Below are positions 1-56,114 of a stretch of DNA of 64,000 bases, piece by piece. Origin of the DNA: Desulfurococcaceae archaeon (GTDB taxonomy: Archaea; Thermoproteota; Thermoprotei_A; Sulfolobales; Desulfurococcaceae). A program made the position numbers and the translations under genes. The notes beneath the pieces are model-generated. The model did not search any database, was not told the DNA's origin, and saw nothing but the letters and a program-made list of their open reading frames with translations. The DNA is taken from the NCBI GenBank assembly GCA_038879595.1, contig JAVZTI010000005.1, positions 10,938 through 74,937 of the forward strand. The letters are read 5' to 3'. The number at the start of each line of letters is the position of its first letter. Position 1 is the first letter of the stretch.

Positions 1-133
1 TCCACAACCTGTTTACAGCTAGCTGAACAGCATCGCGGTACAGCCTCAGGAACTCAACTAGTGCGTCATGGTCGTCGCTACCCTTGGGGAGAGCCCTCAT
101 CTTAAGAGTCTCGACGAGCTCTTCACCCTTCAT
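1..133 (-). CDS. 5' end of a TnpB/OrfB-like gene running off the left edge (partial)
   Basis: Minus-strand ATG at 133-131 (alternative GTG at 148-146) opens MKGEELVETLKMRALPKGSDDHDALVEFLRLYRDAVQLAVNRLW.... The N-terminal pattern resembles the 27492..28586 protein, and the stretch is visibly G+C-richer than its neighbours. Too short for a firm call. Confidence 0.35.
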   Translation of the reverse strand, partial: MKGEELVETLKMRALPKGSDDHDALVEFLRLYRDAVQLAVNRLW

Positions 134-211
134 CGAGTAGCTCACCACATCTAGAACTATAGAGTTTAGTTTATAATCTTTTCTCTCCAGTATCTATATA
201 GGTGGATATAT

Positions 212-355
212 ATGGCTAGAGTTGAGCTGGTTAGGTGTAGCGTCATTAAGTATAGGAGAGGGGACTACGTCCTCTACCCACTCGGCAAAGACAAAGAGAA
301 GATCAAGCATCTCCACGGAAAAGAAGTATGCGTGCTAATCGTAGCAGAAGAATAA
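212..355 (+). CDS. 47-aa AbrB/SpoVT-like micro-protein (not in ORF track)
   Basis: ATG 212 to TAA 353-355: MARVELVRCSVIKYRRGDYVLYPLGKDKEKIKHLHGKEVCVLIVAEE. Aligns without gaps to the 48-aa ORF at 27353..27499 (shared G17, Y22, E29, KHLH 32-35, EV 38-39). Confidence 0.45.
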   Translation: MARVELVRCSVIKYRRGDYVLYPLGKDKEKIKHLHGKEVCVLIVAEE

Positions 356-465
356 CATCACCTGATACAAATCTATATGAAACCCGAAACAGTTGCGTTA
401 GGCTAAAGAGTATTTAAGCAAAGCGCACTCGCTCTTGAATCCACTGTAGCCGTTGCATAGGACTT

Positions 466-6911: not shown

Positions 6912-7649
6912 TTAAACGCGGTTCTTTAACGCCATGAGTTCCCTGACGATCTCGAGGCTAGCTCTATCGCCAAGCATGTTCCAATAAATGCCCTTAGGCC
7001 TCCATCCACGTGCCTTAACTCTTATGAGCTTGCTTGGCGTAGAAATTACATCGACAGTCAAGTCGTGGAGTTCCATGGGTATGCCCTCTACAATCTGAAG
7101 ATCATGTACATTTGTAACTATAGGGGTTCTCTCATCTATAACACCTAACTCCCTTAAGATGCCGTATTCAAGTTCAGAATAACCTCCGCCTTTACCTAGT
7201 CTACGACCCTCTCGATCTACTGCTACGCAACCTGTTACCACTAAGTCTATTGCTGGAATCTCATTTAACTTCAACTTCCTTCCATAAGCAAGTGCACCTC
7301 TTATAGTTGAGGCATACTTAATTCTTGAGCTAGGTATACTCCTTGGATCAAGAATTACGAATCCATTCATCAATCTTGGAGTAGCCATTATAACTATTTT
7401 GCCCTCAGCTAAAGCCCTCTCCCTCAATATTCTTTGAGGAGAATCTGGATTGACTTTAACAACTCTAGCGCTCATCCATAGATCAGTTTTAACTATCCTT
7501 AAGCCAGCTTCTTCAGCCCCCATGAAGTTTGGTATCCTCCCATACACAGGCCTTGGAAATCTAGCTATATTTAATTCCTCAAGCATCCTCCATACAGCTT
7601 TACGTAGCTCAGCCTTTCTCTCCTTGACTGATTTCAAGTAATTCTCCAC
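6912..7649 (-). CDS. 5-formyltetrahydrofolate cyclo-ligase family protein
   Basis: N-terminal KERKAELRKAVW helix and GRRLGKGGGYSELEY motif. Confidence 0.7.
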   Translation of the reverse strand: MENYLKSVKERKAELRKAVWRMLEELNIARFPRPVYGRIPNFMGAEEAGLRIVKTDLWMSARVVKVNPDSPQRILRERALAEGKIVIMATPRLMNGFVILDPRSIPSSRIKYASTIRGALAYGRKLKLNEIPAIDLVVTGCVAVDREGRRLGKGGGYSELEYGILRELGVIDERTPIVTNVHDLQIVEGIPMELHDLTVDVISTPSKLIRVKARGWRPKGIYWNMLGDRASLEIVRELMALKNRV

Positions 7650-8474: not shown

Positions 8475-9227
8475 TTAAATGCTCTTAGGTGCAAGTAAGT
8501 ACTTTATAACTCCTTCTCCAGCTATCCTAAACTCAAGGTATAATGGTGCATCGCTAGAGAACTTGAGAGTTATTGACTCAGATACTCCAGTTAATGAAAG
8601 CACTTTTTCTAAGTATTCTAGGCTATAAGCAGATCTAGATGGCTTACTAACTGAAAGGCTTATTAATGAAGGCATGCTTGCAGTGATCTTTGTTTCAACT
8701 CTTGTAGCATTAACCCCCCTTATGATTAAAGTGCTCTCATCACTTGCCTCAAATTCAACTGTGTCTCCAACTACTTCAGCGTCCCTTATGGCGGTTTTAA
8801 ATGCTTCAGCAAGCAGCATTGCTTCAACGTCAAACTCAAGGCTTAGCTCAGGGATTTCAGGTACTTGTACATCAATGTTTCTAAAGGAGTACTTTCTCCT
8901 AAGCTGAGACTCTACAGCTATATTGATGTAGTCGCCCACGCTACTTATCTCCAATTGATCACCTTTCTTAAGCTTCTTAAGTACTTTAACTAAGTTAGCT
9001 ACGCTGACTCCAACAACTTCCTCTCCGCTAACTTCATATGTTACAAAACTGCCTGCAGGTAAAATTATGTCAATTAGGGATACTTTAGCTGGATCTAGCG
9101 CTTTTATTGATACCCCCTCCTCACTAATCCTAATGGCGACTTCATCAACTACTTTTGATACTGCTTCAATAATGCTTCTAAAGTACTTTGCTTCAGGATA
9201 GATGACTTTAAATGTCAATCGAAACAC
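8475..9227 (-). CDS. pcn: DNA polymerase sliding clamp (PCNA)
   Basis: 250 aa. N-terminus MFRLTFKVIYPEAKYFRSIIEAVSKVVDEVAIRISEEGVSIKALDPAKVSLIDI is the classic archaeal PCNA pattern. Confidence 0.85.
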   Translation of the reverse strand: MFRLTFKVIYPEAKYFRSIIEAVSKVVDEVAIRISEEGVSIKALDPAKVSLIDIILPAGSFVTYEVSGEEVVGVSVANLVKVLKKLKKGDQLEISSVGDYINIAVESQLRRKYSFRNIDVQVPEIPELSLEFDVEAMLLAEAFKTAIRDAEVVGDTVEFEASDESTLIIRGVNATRVETKITASMPSLISLSVSKPSRSAYSLEYLEKVLSLTGVSESITLKFSSDAPLYLEFRIAGEGVIKYLLAPKSI

Positions 9228-9950: not shown

Positions 9951-10943
9951 ATGGAAGTGCCTTCAGCTATAACTACGAGGAACTTGAGAAAAGTGTATAG
10001 AGTTAAGAAGAGGCTTAGCTTAATTAAGAGCCGGGAGGAAGTAGTTGAAGCTCTTAAAGGAATAAGCTTTGAAGTAAGGTATGGAGAAATAGTTGGATTA
10101 CTTGGACCAAATGGGGCCGGTAAGACAACTACTATAAAGATAATTTCAACACTCCTCATTCCAGATGCTGGTGAAGCATATGTCGATGGCTACGACGTTG
10201 TAAGGCAAGCCAATGAAGTGAGGAAGAGGATAGGGTTAATGCTTACCGTAGAAAAAGGTTTTTACGGTAAGCTGACTGGAAAGGAGAACTTAGAGTACTT
10301 CGCTGCACTATATGGCTTAAGTAGAAGTGAAGCAGAGAGGAGAATAAACCACCTCATAAAGGTACTTGAGCTAGATAAGCTTGGAGCTGTAGACAAATTG
10401 TTTGAAGAATATAGCTTGGGAATGAAGGCCAGGCTCTCTATAGCTAGAGCCCTCTTAAAGAATTCACCAGTCCTACTACTTGATGAACCAACGCTTGGAC
10501 TAGACCCTCCTAGCGCGAGGAAAATTCGAGAATTAGTCAAGTCACTCGCTAGAGAAGAGGGGAAGGCAGTACTATACACTACTCACAACATGTTTGAAGC
10601 AGAGCTTGTTTGCGATAAAATATTGCTCATTAATAAGGGATTGATAGTGGCTGAAGGAACCCCCGACGAGCTGAAGTCTAAGATACCTAAGCTACGCGTA
10701 ATCACTATTACTGTAAGGAATGGTGAGCGAGTAAAAATAGAGGAAGCTTTAGCTCCACTAGTAACTACGTATACTGTGACAAGCAATGAATTCGGAGAAA
10801 CTACAGTAAAAGTAAGTACGAAGAGCCCTGAGGAGATCTTGGGCGAAGTCATTAGGGCCTTAGTTGCATGCGGCTGCGATATTTCATCAGTGAGAATTGA
10901 AGAACCAACGCTTGAGGATGTATTCATATATTTCAGCCAGTAG
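9951..10943 (+). CDS. ABC transporter ATP-binding protein (ABC-2 exporter type)
   Basis: Walker A GPNGAGKTT, signature YSLGMKARL and Walker B LLLDEPTLGLD. Confidence 0.9.
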   Translation: MEVPSAITTRNLRKVYRVKKRLSLIKSREEVVEALKGISFEVRYGEIVGLLGPNGAGKTTTIKIISTLLIPDAGEAYVDGYDVVRQANEVRKRIGLMLTVEKGFYGKLTGKENLEYFAALYGLSRSEAERRINHLIKVLELDKLGAVDKLFEEYSLGMKARLSIARALLKNSPVLLLDEPTLGLDPPSARKIRELVKSLAREEGKAVLYTTHNMFEAELVCDKILLINKGLIVAEGTPDELKSKIPKLRVITITVRNGERVKIEEALAPLVTTYTVTSNEFGETTVKVSTKSPEEILGEVIRALVACGCDISSVRIEEPTLEDVFIYFSQ

Positions 10944-27069: not shown

Positions 27070-27292
27070 ACCATTGCATAAGCCGCTTCTCGGTGGATGG
27101 CTGTTCATTGGCTTTCACTTTCTTTCGTATCCAGCCTCCCAGCCGTCCACTTCTCAACGGCTTGTTCTTACCCAGCCCCGCCTGCGGGAGCGTGTCTCCA
27201 GCGGTTGCCCGTGGTTCATCCAGCTCCCTGCGGTGAAGCTGGGTGCACGAGGTGTCCCCCTCGCCATGCTCATCGAGTTCATCCCTACTCCA
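27070..27292 (-). ncRNA. candidate structured non-coding RNA (unclassified)
   Basis: Hand count gives 106/170 G+C (62%) for 27121-27290, against AT-rich flanks. Several nested helices, including a hairpin whose loop reads GCAA (GNRA) on the minus strand. The G+C-rich block starts about 26 nt from the palindromic TATA box at 27315-27320. ORFs here look non-protein-like. Strand and ends are uncertain. Confidence 0.3.
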
Positions 27293-27314
27293 ATATTGTC
27301 ATACATGTAAATAC

Positions 27315-27320
27315 TTATAA
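27315..27320. promoter_or_regulatory. palindromic TATA box (TTATAA), possible bidirectional promoter
   Basis: TTATAA lies about 26 nt from the minus-strand G+C island edge (about 27291) and about 33-38 nt upstream of the TTG start at 27353. Confidence 0.3.
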
Positions 27321-27352
27321 GCTTTTCTGCAGTATGTTGCAATGGTGGTGGT

Positions 27353-27499
27353 TTGCCAGAGGAGTATGTGTTCCACGTGAGGATCTCGAGGACAAGCCAC
27401 GGCTTGCTCTGCATCTACATACCCAAGCGTCTCAGCGAGAGAATGAAGCACCTGCACAGAAGAGAGGTTGTTGTGCGTGTCACAGTACCAGATGCATAG
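27353..27499 (+). CDS. 48-aa AbrB/SpoVT-like micro-protein (not in ORF track)
   Basis: TTG 27353 (GGTGGTGG just upstream) to TAG 27497-27499: MPEEYVFHVRISRTSHGLLCIYIPKRLSERMKHLHRREVVVRVTVPDA. The I-x-IPK...EV-V-V pattern is AbrB-like, and it is a paralogue of 212..355. Confidence 0.5.
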   Translation: MPEEYVFHVRISRTSHGLLCIYIPKRLSERMKHLHRREVVVRVTVPDA

Positions 27500-28586
27500 A
27501 GTCAGGGATGCGTCAAAGCTAGTAGAGTACGTAACGATAGTTGGGAGGCTTGAACCACTCACCGAAGAAGACTACGTGAAGCTTGTGAGACTAGCACACG
27601 AGTTCAGGAAAGCCGCAACCTACGCTACGAGAATGATTGCTAAGGGCATAGACCCAAATACCGTTCTCAGAGAACTGCGCTCAATGCTTAACAAAGCGTA
27701 CGGGGATTCAGCGTTCAAGCTTGCTAAAGCCATAGTGGAGAGTGCTAGATCAAACAACGGAAACCCGCTGAAGATAGAAATTAGGAGGCTCTTCATAGTA
27801 TCGGAGGGTGAAGCAGGCAGGCTAGGTAACAGAAACGTGAGGTTGGATGACTCCAGCACCGTGAGGATCAGGTATCCGTACGAAAGATCGTGGCTCAGTT
27901 TCAGAGCAAGATTCGGAGAAAACCATGTACCGCTCGTCAAGGAGCTATCAGAGCTTGCTAAATCGAGGAAGTGTAGCTACGGTGCGAAAATAGTTTTCAG
28001 GAAGGGTAGAGTTTACCTTCACTTATCTGTACCCGTAGAGCTCTACTTGAAGTACTTCGGGAGGGGCGAAGCCATAGGGAGCTTAATTGCAGGCTTCGAC
28101 CTGAACAGCGACAGGGTAAACATGGTGATAGTGGATAAGTACGGAAGAGTAGTGGATGTGAGAACAGCTTGGTTCCCCGAGGTAACATCCCCGGGTTACC
28201 CGGGGAGCAAAGCTATGGTTGTTAGGCTTCGAGCTCTAGCAGAGCTACTCAACTACGCATACCACCACGGTGTTGGTGTAGTCGTGTTCGAAGACCTCGA
28301 CAAGATCAAGCAGAGAAGGTTCACCAGTTCACCCACAGCCAACAGGAAGATAACCAGATTCGCAAAGAAACAACTACTAACTCACGCAGTAGTCATGGCT
28401 TTGAAGTACGGGTTGAAACCTGTTCTAGTCGATCCACGAGGAACCACGAGCTCACCCGTACACAGCACTGTGATGAAGAAGCATGGTTTAGATAGGCACA
28501 CAGCGTCAGCTTACCTAATAGCACTCAGATATCTTCAGGACGAAAAGACCGTGAACGGTCACAAAGCACATAAACAATACAAATGA
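27492..28586 (+). CDS. TnpB/OrfB-like RuvC-fold protein lacking the zinc-ribbon insert
   Basis: Motif order GFDLNSD ... VVFEDLD ... VDPRGTTSS ... GLDRHTASAYLIA matches the TnpB split RuvC layout. Only about 12 residues with no Cys pairs sit where CxxC..CxxC normally lies. The ATG at 27492 overlaps the micro-ORF stop (ATGCATAG). Confidence 0.65.
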   Translation: MHRVRDASKLVEYVTIVGRLEPLTEEDYVKLVRLAHEFRKAATYATRMIAKGIDPNTVLRELRSMLNKAYGDSAFKLAKAIVESARSNNGNPLKIEIRRLFIVSEGEAGRLGNRNVRLDDSSTVRIRYPYERSWLSFRARFGENHVPLVKELSELAKSRKCSYGAKIVFRKGRVYLHLSVPVELYLKYFGRGEAIGSLIAGFDLNSDRVNMVIVDKYGRVVDVRTAWFPEVTSPGYPGSKAMVVRLRALAELLNYAYHHGVGVVVFEDLDKIKQRRFTSSPTANRKITRFAKKQLLTHAVVMALKYGLKPVLVDPRGTTSSPVHSTVMKKHGLDRHTASAYLIALRYLQDEKTVNGHKAHKQYK

Positions 28587-28721
28587 ATATCAAAAAGAAA
28601 ACAGCCCATTCATAATTTCTTGACTCTATTAAGTGCATAATGGAGATCTAATAAAGCTGTGTAGGTAAGGTTTAAAAGTATTGCTCATTGATAGTTTTCT
28701 GGAGTACATGGGGTTGCATAA

Positions 28722-30896: not shown

Positions 30897-31089
30897 AGCA
30901 CTAGACAGGCTCTGCCCTTATGAGTCCCTAAGTCTCATTCACTAGACCGTCATTGCTATATCTTTAAGATTTTTAAAGCGTCTAAAATCAATATGTTATG
31001 TTAATTTGCCAATAGTATTTTGCTACAAGATCTTTTAACGCCTCGTGTAGCTGTTTCGGTTTTCATATCTGTTTATATTGATTGAAATA

Positions 31090-31096
31090 TTTATAA
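31090..31096 (+). promoter_or_regulatory. TATA box candidate (TTTATAA)
   Basis: Lies about 25 nt upstream of the abrupt start of the G+C-rich island at about 31116. Confidence 0.3.
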
Positions 31097-31108
31097 GAAC
31101 TCTATACA
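31094..31108 (+). repeat. direct repeat copy 1 (TAAGAACTCTATACA)
   Basis: 14/15 identical to 31334..31348. The pair brackets the G+C island. Confidence 0.5.
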
Positions 31109-31116
31109 GCGATATG

Positions 31117-31293
31117 CCTGGATGAGGGTTCGAGAGCCCATCGAGGCTCTCTCCGAGATACTCAAGATGTGGGGTGCCCGGAGTCGCCCTGAAAGCCCCT
31201 AAGGGTTATGCAAACCCAAGACTGATGCAGGGGAAAAGAGATGAAGCAATGAAGTCAACAGATATAAAACTACATAAGAGCTGAACCCCTTTT
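31117..31293 (+). ncRNA. candidate small structured RNA (unclassified)
   Basis: Hand count gives 73/130 G+C (56%) for 31111-31240 inside a very AT-rich ORF-free region. It has a perfect hairpin GAGAGCC-CATCGA-GGCTCTC (31132-31151) and ends in CCCC+TTTT (31286-31293). The 3' part has a C-box-like GAGATGA (31238-31244) and a D-box CTGA (31281-31284) bracketed by GGGG/CCCC. Confidence 0.25.
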
Positions 31294-55752: not shown

Positions 55753-55864
55753 ACTTTCAAAACTCTCTCGTTAAGCTTAAAAGAATAAAAACTAAGCCCC
55801 TTAACTAAGACCTGATTATGCAATAACTAAGTATCTTTATGACGCACAGTAAGTGAGTTAGAAG

Positions 55865-55940
55865 TGCGGCGGCCGGGATTTGAACCCGGGATCTCCGGCG
55901 TGGCAGGCCGGCGTCCTAGTCCAGGCTAGACGACCGCCGC
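55865..55940 (-). tRNA. tRNA-Gly (anticodon GCC)
   Basis: Cloverleaf GCGGCGG...CCGGC-CUGCCAC-GCCGG...CCGGG-UUCAAAU-CCCGG-CCGCCGC-A. No encoded CCA and no intron. Confidence 0.9.
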
Positions 55941-56039
55941 TCAATTGTTTTAACTAAGTTAATTAGATTAAAATACTTTAATTAAGACTTCTGTAAGTAA
56001 GTTATTTTTAGGTGTAGTTAAGTGTGGCTTTAGTAGTGA

Positions 56040-56114
56040 GCCGCCGTAGTATAGCCCGGTCAAGTATGCGGGCCTTTCGAGCCCGTGACCCGGGTTCAAA
56101 TCCCGGCGGCGGCA
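56040..56114 (+). tRNA. tRNA-Glu (anticodon UUC)
   Basis: GCCGCCG...CGGGC-CUUUCGA-GCCCG...CCGGG-UUCAAAU-CCCGG-CGGCGGC-A. No encoded CCA, followed by a T-run. Confidence 0.9.

Follow-up and report, generated by a model that had tools for sequence, protein, structure and literature searches.

A micro-protein family encoded beside canonical and RIIIr-4 tnpB genes in archaeal transposons, with a candidate role as repressor of its own element

The 64,000-nucleotide stretch of Desulfurococcaceae DNA analysed here (hereafter the window) carries two tiny open reading frames, ORF47 (212..355, plus strand; 47 aa) and ORF48 (27353..27499, plus strand; 48 aa), each next to a gene resembling tnpB, once head-to-head and once in tandem. 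The preliminary description, made from the letters of the window, took this double adjacency as a sign of a functional link, such as a repressor or partner, and called the micro-proteins AbrB-like; its coordinates for both ORFs and its other statements on the sequence were all verified. The locus raises the question of what these micro-proteins are and what they may do for the elements that carry them. Cas12 descends from TnpB nucleases, which are under development as compact genome editors. How transposons restrain TnpB is only lately being clarified, with the work on Arc in 2026.

At the left edge of the window, the minus-strand frame from ATG 133 translates as MKGEELVETLKMRALPKGSDDHDALVEFLRLYRDAVQLAVNRLW and supplies the first 44 codons of a gene (1..133, minus strand) whose remainder lies to the left; this 44-aa fragment gave no match in Pfam or NCBIfam. 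Positions 1-400 of the window are 100% identical to contig L001 from 9790 onwards, and L001 thus extends the contig leftwards. The complete gene, read from this identical contig (L001 8699-9922), encodes a protein of 407 aa. In Pfam, this protein passed the gathering cut-off of PF07282 (Cas12f1-like TNB domain; E = 2.6e-14), so that the proposal of a TnpB-like gene at the left edge held for the full-length protein. The catalytic residues D181, E275, and D356 and the zinc-finger cysteines C329/332/346/349 (C4) were invariant in 8/8 copies, and RuvC-III reads GDRDVVACINL. The gene is classed as a canonical TnpB of the typical clade, with a D-E-D triad and a C4 zinc finger. Two starts had been offered for it, ATG 133 and GTG 148; homologues back ATG 133, so that the spacer to ORF47 is 78 nt and not 63 nt. 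The gene had also been called G+C-rich, which is correct for bases 1-133 (0.53) but not for the whole tnpB (0.436, compared with a window mean of 0.405).

The second large gene (27477..28586, plus strand) encodes a 369-aa TnpB relative that was assigned by homology, motifs, and hhalign to clade RIIIr-4 and to Pfam PF27229 (SSO2105_N); a literature search for SSO2105 by name found nothing. Its earlier reading as a TnpB relative stands, but homology places its start at GTG 27477 (MSQYQ...) rather than at 27492 or 27468. The family is large, with members 55-87% identical across the Desulfurococcales and others in Vulcanisaeta, Caldivirga, Ignisphaera, and further genera, and a second paralogue (P0008) is encoded in the source MAG. 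The protein reached only below-threshold scores with TnpB models and had no PF07282 match. In hhalign, its family gave a 271-column alignment with that of the canonical TnpB, stopping at residue 327 (Prob 94%, E = 8.5e-8), with the N-termini, RuvC-I (GFDLNSD/TIDVNFD), and RuvC-II (VVFEDL/IVLENL) all in register, in agreement with the N-terminal likeness first seen between the two large genes. The RuvC-I D and the RuvC-II E are kept. In RuvC-III, DRH replaces DRD (GLDRHTASAY; D339 and H341 invariant in 17 relatives), an Asp-to-His call that is a motif-level alignment lying beyond the end of the hhalign match. The protein has no C4 zinc finger, being cysteine-free between VDPRGTTSS and GLDRH. 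A RuvC-III Asp-to-His change and the lack of a C4 zinc finger characterise clade RIIIr-4, of which the archaeal 'RHH/MazE-TnpB' branch is a part (Altae-Tran et al., PNAS 2023; PMC10691335).

ORF47 and ORF48 align without gaps, as had been claimed, with 11/47 identities (M1, G17, Y22, E29, K32, H33, L34, H35, E38, V39, and V41). Pairwise BLASTP was weak (an 8-aa HSP, E = 0.009), and each ORF was the best non-self match of the other in the six-frame translation of the window (E about 0.02). The in-register BLOSUM62 score of 44 was matched by 1/200,000 shuffles, and hhalign of the two family profiles gave Prob 93% and E = 2.7e-7, again in register, so that the similarity is significant under a proper alignment statistic. 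MAFFT aligned the two families without internal gaps. A joint HMM of both retrieved 45 clusters (50% identity), whose sequences look intermediate between the types, and the consensus is close to vYvFea.VvK..gryvIYPpKeyqeKlkkLHGkkVkViVi.E. ORF47 and ORF48 are judged homologous on this evidence.

Both ORFs are also identified as true coding genes under purifying selection, ORF47 from a coding test, an exact look-up, and a cluster survey, and ORF48 from a codon test and profile comparison. The exact ORF47 sequence is present on 21 contigs, and its homologues comprise 18 protein clusters at 67-89% identity and 41 metagenome loci; an exact-sequence look-up of the 224-aa TYW3 neighbour protein returned no record. 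Among 26 distinct copies of ORF47, variable columns numbered 16/20/37 by codon position with a pN/pS of 0.18, compared with 1.3-1.7 in 4/5 of the other frames; the wobble-matched antisense frame, interrupted by stops, gave 0.28. For ORF48, the corresponding values were 13/10/36 and 0.11, with 1.6-2.1 in 4/5 of the other frames. The ORF47 frame was unbroken in every examined copy except two frameshifted ones, and a codon is inserted in frame in one paralogue. GGTG-type ribosome-binding motifs precede both genes.

The setting of ORF47 was surveyed at 46 loci. In most of them, a spacer of 75-96 nt separates ORF47 from a divergently oriented tnpB belonging to the same family, or from the decayed relic of such a gene, and the tnpB genes beside ORF47 homologues are 67-100% identical within the family. 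Where tnpB has decayed, an N-terminal relic persists beside an intact ORF47; at a few loci ORF47 stands in a solo cassette or at a contig edge. The conserved block of DNA takes in tnpB, the spacer, and ORF47 and continues for a further 48 nt, to ...CAGTTGCGTKAGGC, where the flanks diverge; in the window, this conserved 48-nt terminus (...TATATGAAACCCGAAACAGTTGCGTTAGGC) occupies 356..403 (plus strand). The opposite end lies 7 nt past the tnpB stop codon. The unit is multi-copy, with dozens of copies at many genomic sites, and is termed the tnpB407 IS here. Because the conserved block spans tnpB through ORF47 to defined ends, ORF47 is recognised as a gene internal to a multi-copy IS. The constant spacing and orientation inside the IS boundaries at most of the 46 loci bear out the original view that the adjacency of micro-gene and TnpB is not due to chance.

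The divergent spacer between tnpB and ORF47 (134..211), a putative promoter and operator region, is conserved across copies. It contains a TATA-like TTTATAAT at 170-177 within an imperfect 36-nt palindrome (156-191) and has Shine-Dalgarno-like GGTG motifs on both sides. Copy L009 carries GAGAtAAGCTTATAAGCTTtTCTC, and the palindrome is nearly perfect there. At the other side of the element, tnpB shares its 3' end with a putative omega-RNA-like region, with covarying positions in the 3' coding part recognised by eye only. An inverted subterminal motif, AATAYAAACCTATAT, is located ~17-25 nt inside both IS ends (L001 about 8690-8730 and about 10150-10195; window about 365-380); inverted repeats are not the norm at IS200/IS605 ends.

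A miniature derivative of the tnpB407 IS, ~250 bp long, was found by blastn, tblastn, and sequence reading at 31040..31290 (plus strand). Both termini are still there, as are the TATA region and the omega-RNA-like 3' part, whereas tnpB and ORF47 are missing. Further miniatures lie at about 6790-7067 of contig L005 and about 5270-5547 of contig L004, and the size range is about 250-290 bp. The miniatures are probably non-autonomous guide-RNA-bearing elements, and their lack of ORF47 shows that this gene is dispensable in cis. No clear target-adjacent motif was found in the flanks of the tnpB407 IS or of the second element of the window (27082-28608).

This second element, 1.53 kb in length, contains ORF48, the 3' end of which overlaps the start of the 27477 gene by 23 nt. 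It is 99% identical to L004 5716-7240, an unrelated locus. The right terminus (28587..28608, plus strand; ...AAAAGAAAACAGCC) is placed where the identity to L004 ends and by an empty site on the sister contig L005 (about 7235-7245), which reads AACTGAAAC-T-CCTATATC compared with AACTGAAAC[element]CCTATATC; comparison with this empty site revealed no target-site duplication. Two 99%-identical loci together with an empty site indicate that the RIIIr-4 unit is, or recently was, mobile, at odds with its characterisation as 'immobilised'.

The left end of the second element is a structured non-coding region (27082..27300) with a G+C content of 0.59, conserved upstream of all relatives, including those that carry an RHH-like micro-gene. 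Its helices show strong covariation, for example ACCCAGC/GCTGGGT, CTCTCCACG/CGTGGAGAG, and TCCAAG/CTTGGA. The region had no Rfam match at gathering or E-value thresholds; the sole Rfam or ARAGORN matches in the window were the divergent tRNA-Gly(GCC) and tRNA-Glu(TTC) genes at 55864-56114. A lower MFE in 13/13 sequences, GNRA loops (the hairpin loop being GCAA, GUAA, or GUGA on the minus strand), and promoter geometry point to the minus strand, while the wobble counts of the shared helices were neutral on this matter (9 vs 7; 11 vs 7) and the duplex energies mixed. The region could represent a guide-type RNA with divergent transcription, or else a 5' leader. Between it and ORF48 lies a promoter-like A+T-rich stretch (27305..27352, plus strand), with CTTATAAG at 27314-27321 followed by CTTTTCTGCAGTAT; this stretch is conserved in all AbrB-type relatives and resembles the ORF47 promoter.

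The gene slot occupied by ORF48 is a constant feature of the RIIIr-4 relatives. A small upstream gene was present in 26/26 RIIIr-4 loci examined and overlapped the start region of the large gene in 25/26, by approximate coordinates. Its types are ORF48-like, more AbrB-looking variants, MazE/AbrB, and RHH-like: at L089, a bona fide MazE/AbrB protein (PF04014, E = 2e-12) fills the slot, and at 8 loci it is filled by an RHH-like protein (group C) with sub-threshold matches to RHH_3 and RHH_6. The displacement of the micro-gene by MazE and RHH types was reported by Altae-Tran et al. (2023). As the slot is filled by differing folds, it seems to require a small DNA-binding dimer and not one fold.

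The two element types also resemble each other outside their genes. The promoters of ORF47 and ORF48 resemble one another (TTATAAkCTTTTCT..CAGTAT), RIIIr-4 elements have 3' termini matching the one that follows ORF47 (ATGAAACCCGAAACAG...AGGC), and the ATGAAnACCGAAACAG motif of the 356..403 terminus also ends RIIIr-4 elements, suggesting that the two types share an end-plus-promoter module. Beyond the TATA-proximal similarity, no operator motif common to the two promoters was found. A common motif can be followed in the 356-403 terminus (TATGAAACCCGAAACAGTTGCGTTAGGC) and in the RIIIr-4 3' termini (ATTATGAAGACCGAAACAGCCC, AAACCGAAACAGCTACATAAGGCG; 28560-28608, L068-L089).

The label AbrB-like was plausible by position and pattern, but neither ORF47 nor ORF48 gave a significant match in Pfam, the PDB, or Foldseek. 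Neither matched any Pfam or NCBIfam model, and searches of PDB sequences and profiles, run with three alignments, returned nothing relevant, the best being YggU/DUF167 (1n91) at E = 0.11. Foldseek searches of both AlphaFold models against the PDB and BFVD gave nothing significant (E of 0.7 or higher); the top matches were VapB AbrB-type domains for ORF47 (E = 0.7) and the dimeric DZBB barrel 8jvp for ORF48 (TM 0.50, E = 1.2). PF04014 matched 1/42 members of the micro-protein family, weakly (E = 0.022), and hhalign of the family profile with the canonical MazE neighbour at L089 gave no match. No RHH Pfam match was obtained for ORF47 or ORF48, and their predicted structure is not strand-helix-helix. 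Secondary structure was predicted as strand-strand-helix for ORF47 and strand-helix-strand for ORF48, and the AlphaFold models had pLDDT values of 82.5 and 87, these being monomers that cannot show a dimeric barrel. The models and predictions suggest a beta-beta-alpha-beta family.

The micro-protein family is not confined to TnpB elements, as a distant member, P0193 (46 aa), lies at L096. At L096 652-2647, P0193 is located directly 5' of a 612-aa DUF5906 gene, with an HTH gene nearby, and this setting looks plasmid- or virus-like. The layout recalls plasmid pRN1, in which a small CopG-type regulator gene stands upstream of the replicase gene. The best explanation of the family as a whole is that it comprises ~47-60-aa proteins of predicted beta-beta-alpha-beta fold carried in TnpB transposons of hyperthermophilic archaea.

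Considering these results, we propose, as the best supported of the readings, the following scenario, which we regard as about evenly balanced between right and wrong: the micro-protein may be an element-encoded, small, dimeric DNA-binding repressor of the promoter of its element. The micro-protein would dimerise and bind the promoter of its own element, which for ORF47 would be the palindromic, TATA-centred divergent promoter and for ORF48 the tandem promoter. Once bound, it would repress both itself and tnpB, and hence the guide RNA derived from the tnpB transcript, so that the RNA-guided nuclease would stay at levels low enough to be tolerated. That the micro-protein binds DNA, has an operator, and represses is what we infer from several features of the elements. 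Other small DNA-binding folds displace the micro-gene in its slot, and dyad symmetry surrounds the TATA box of the divergent promoter. The micro-proteins, at 47-48 aa, are about as long as the AbrB/MazE core (~45 aa; the PF04014 profile has 48 positions), whereas typical MazE/VapB-type antitoxins are roughly 70-85 aa and have a toxin-binding tail, for which 47-48 aa leaves no space. The dispensability of ORF47 in cis fits a trans-acting product, and the distant member P0193 adjoins a DUF5906 gene with an HTH-protein neighbour. Repression also has a precedent in Arc of bacterial IS605 elements. Pure autoregulation of tnpB does not explain why ORF47 is intact beside decayed tnpB genes and in solo cassettes.

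A serious alternative, above all where ORF48 and tnpB overlap, is the model proposed by Altae-Tran et al. (2023) for RHH/MazE-TnpB: the micro-protein would act as an antitoxin-like partner which binds TnpB and blocks RNA-guided DNA cleavage, the two forming a toxin-antitoxin-type module; we consider this unlikely overall. With a small upstream gene and a 23-nt overlap, ORF48 and tnpB are laid out like a type II toxin-antitoxin system, and the overlap is also compatible with a stoichiometric protein partner, but ORF47 is transcribed divergently, without the co-transcription and layout of such a system. MazE and RHH are both classic antitoxin folds, and a published AlphaFold co-fold puts an RHH protein where the guide-target duplex would be blocked (Altae-Tran et al., 2023); however, both micro-proteins are tailless, with no toxin-binding extension. 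An intact ORF47 beside a decayed tnpB could reflect anti-addiction against other copies. The miniature copies manage without the micro-protein. Moreover, the 27082-28608 unit, with its defined ends and empty site, behaves as a mobile IS and not as a fixed module.

Rather improbable, in our view, is a role as a transposition accessory factor, in which the micro-protein would bind the element ends and assist or regulate a trans-supplied transposase in excision or integration. The micro-gene adjoins an IS terminus, both ends of the tnpB407 IS bear the inverted subterminal motif, and the terminus on the ORF47 side is common to RIIIr-4 elements. However, the shared motif could equally be a feature of a transposase or of an RNA, and the displacement by RHH and MazE types, together with the promoter changes, points to promoter control.

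Scarcely credible is the view that the ORFs are non-functional, either chance ORFs in transposon-end or RNA sequence that is conserved anyway as part of the IS, or relics of tnpA (Y1 HUH), whose slot in IS605 ORF47 occupies and which its KYRR and HLH strings might suggest, since third codon positions gather substitutions, pN/pS is 0.11-0.18 solely in the ORF frame, and the ORF is unbroken in nearly every copy. The tnpA candidate was examined separately and rejected: the micro-ORFs had no Pfam Y1_Tnp (PF01797) match even at E = 10, and the first His of 'HLH' varies across the wider micro-protein family.

If the repressor reading holds, the locus would provide an archaeal, non-RHH counterpart of Arc in two distant TnpB clades and a natural promoter/regulator pair to test. 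The results also indicate that at least some 'RHH/MazE-TnpB' units called immobile toxin-antitoxin modules still move and carry a structured region, possibly a guide RNA. A broader proposal, which we offer tentatively and regard as doubtful, is that one micro-protein family is the element-encoded controller common to the canonical and the RIIIr-4 TnpB lineages, themselves deeply divergent. The 'RHH/MazE-TnpB modules' would then be active ISs built on one plan, in which a bidirectional promoter lies between the micro-gene and either tnpB with a guide RNA or a ~210-nt structured RNA that is maybe a divergent guide RNA for a zinc-finger-less nuclease.

Among known systems, the tnpB407 IS resembles the tnpB-only elements of the IS200/IS605 family, which we take to be the 'IS1341-type' group of ISfinder, in being multi-copy with defined ends, in the omega-RNA-like region over the tnpB 3' end, in the boundary 7 nt past the stop codon, and in its miniature derivatives. 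It differs from them in that one more conserved protein gene lies between tnpB and the opposite end. The micro-proteins resemble the SpoVT/AbrB family (MazE_antitoxin, PF04014) in size, in the order of strands and helix, and in an I/Y-P-K ... L-x-G-x-x-V-x-V pattern, and in the distant relative L089 their place is taken by a true PF04014 protein; they differ from it in that ORF47 and ORF48 have no significant match to it and the fourth strand is not evident.

The tandem pair at 27353-28586 is identified as the published archaeal RHH/MazE-TnpB system of clade RIIIr-4, which it resembles in its RuvC-III His, its lack of a zinc finger, its archaeal host, and the small AbrB/MazE- or RHH-type gene upstream. 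That system was treated as a non-mobile toxin-antitoxin module with a possible 3' guide RNA (Altae-Tran et al., 2023). In contrast, 27082-28608 is a 1.53-kb element with defined ends, two loci, and an empty site; the stop of the 27477 gene is trailed by only 22 nt, and the conserved structured region is on the 5' side. The mobility of RIIIr-4 units, the structured 5' region, and the termini common to both element types go beyond the literature found.

Arc is an RHH repressor inside bacterial IS605 elements; its gene is often divergent from tnpB, and it was shown experimentally to bind and repress the bidirectional tnpA/tnpB promoter (Moon, Zedaveinyte, Wiegand, Sternberg, bioRxiv 2026; 10.64898/2026.09.24.754181). 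ORF47 is also a tiny gene within an IS, divergent from tnpB by a palindromic, promoter-like spacer. Arc, however, is an RHH protein, bacterial, and usually accompanied by tnpA, whereas ORF47 and ORF48 are predicted to be beta-beta-alpha-beta proteins, archaeal, and without tnpA; the Arc preprint makes no mention of AbrB or MazE. The suggestion of a repressor or partner in the preliminary description fits both the RHH/MazE-TnpB proposal (PMC10691335) and Arc by analogy. The tandem ORF48/tnpB arrangement is already published, whereas the divergent arrangement of ORF47 with a canonical tnpB, described in neither Altae-Tran et al. (2023) nor Moon et al. (2026), is new. By analogy, the ORF47 system is best filed as a counterpart of Arc that is archaeal and not of the RHH type, and that is related to the RIIIr-4 'MazE'.
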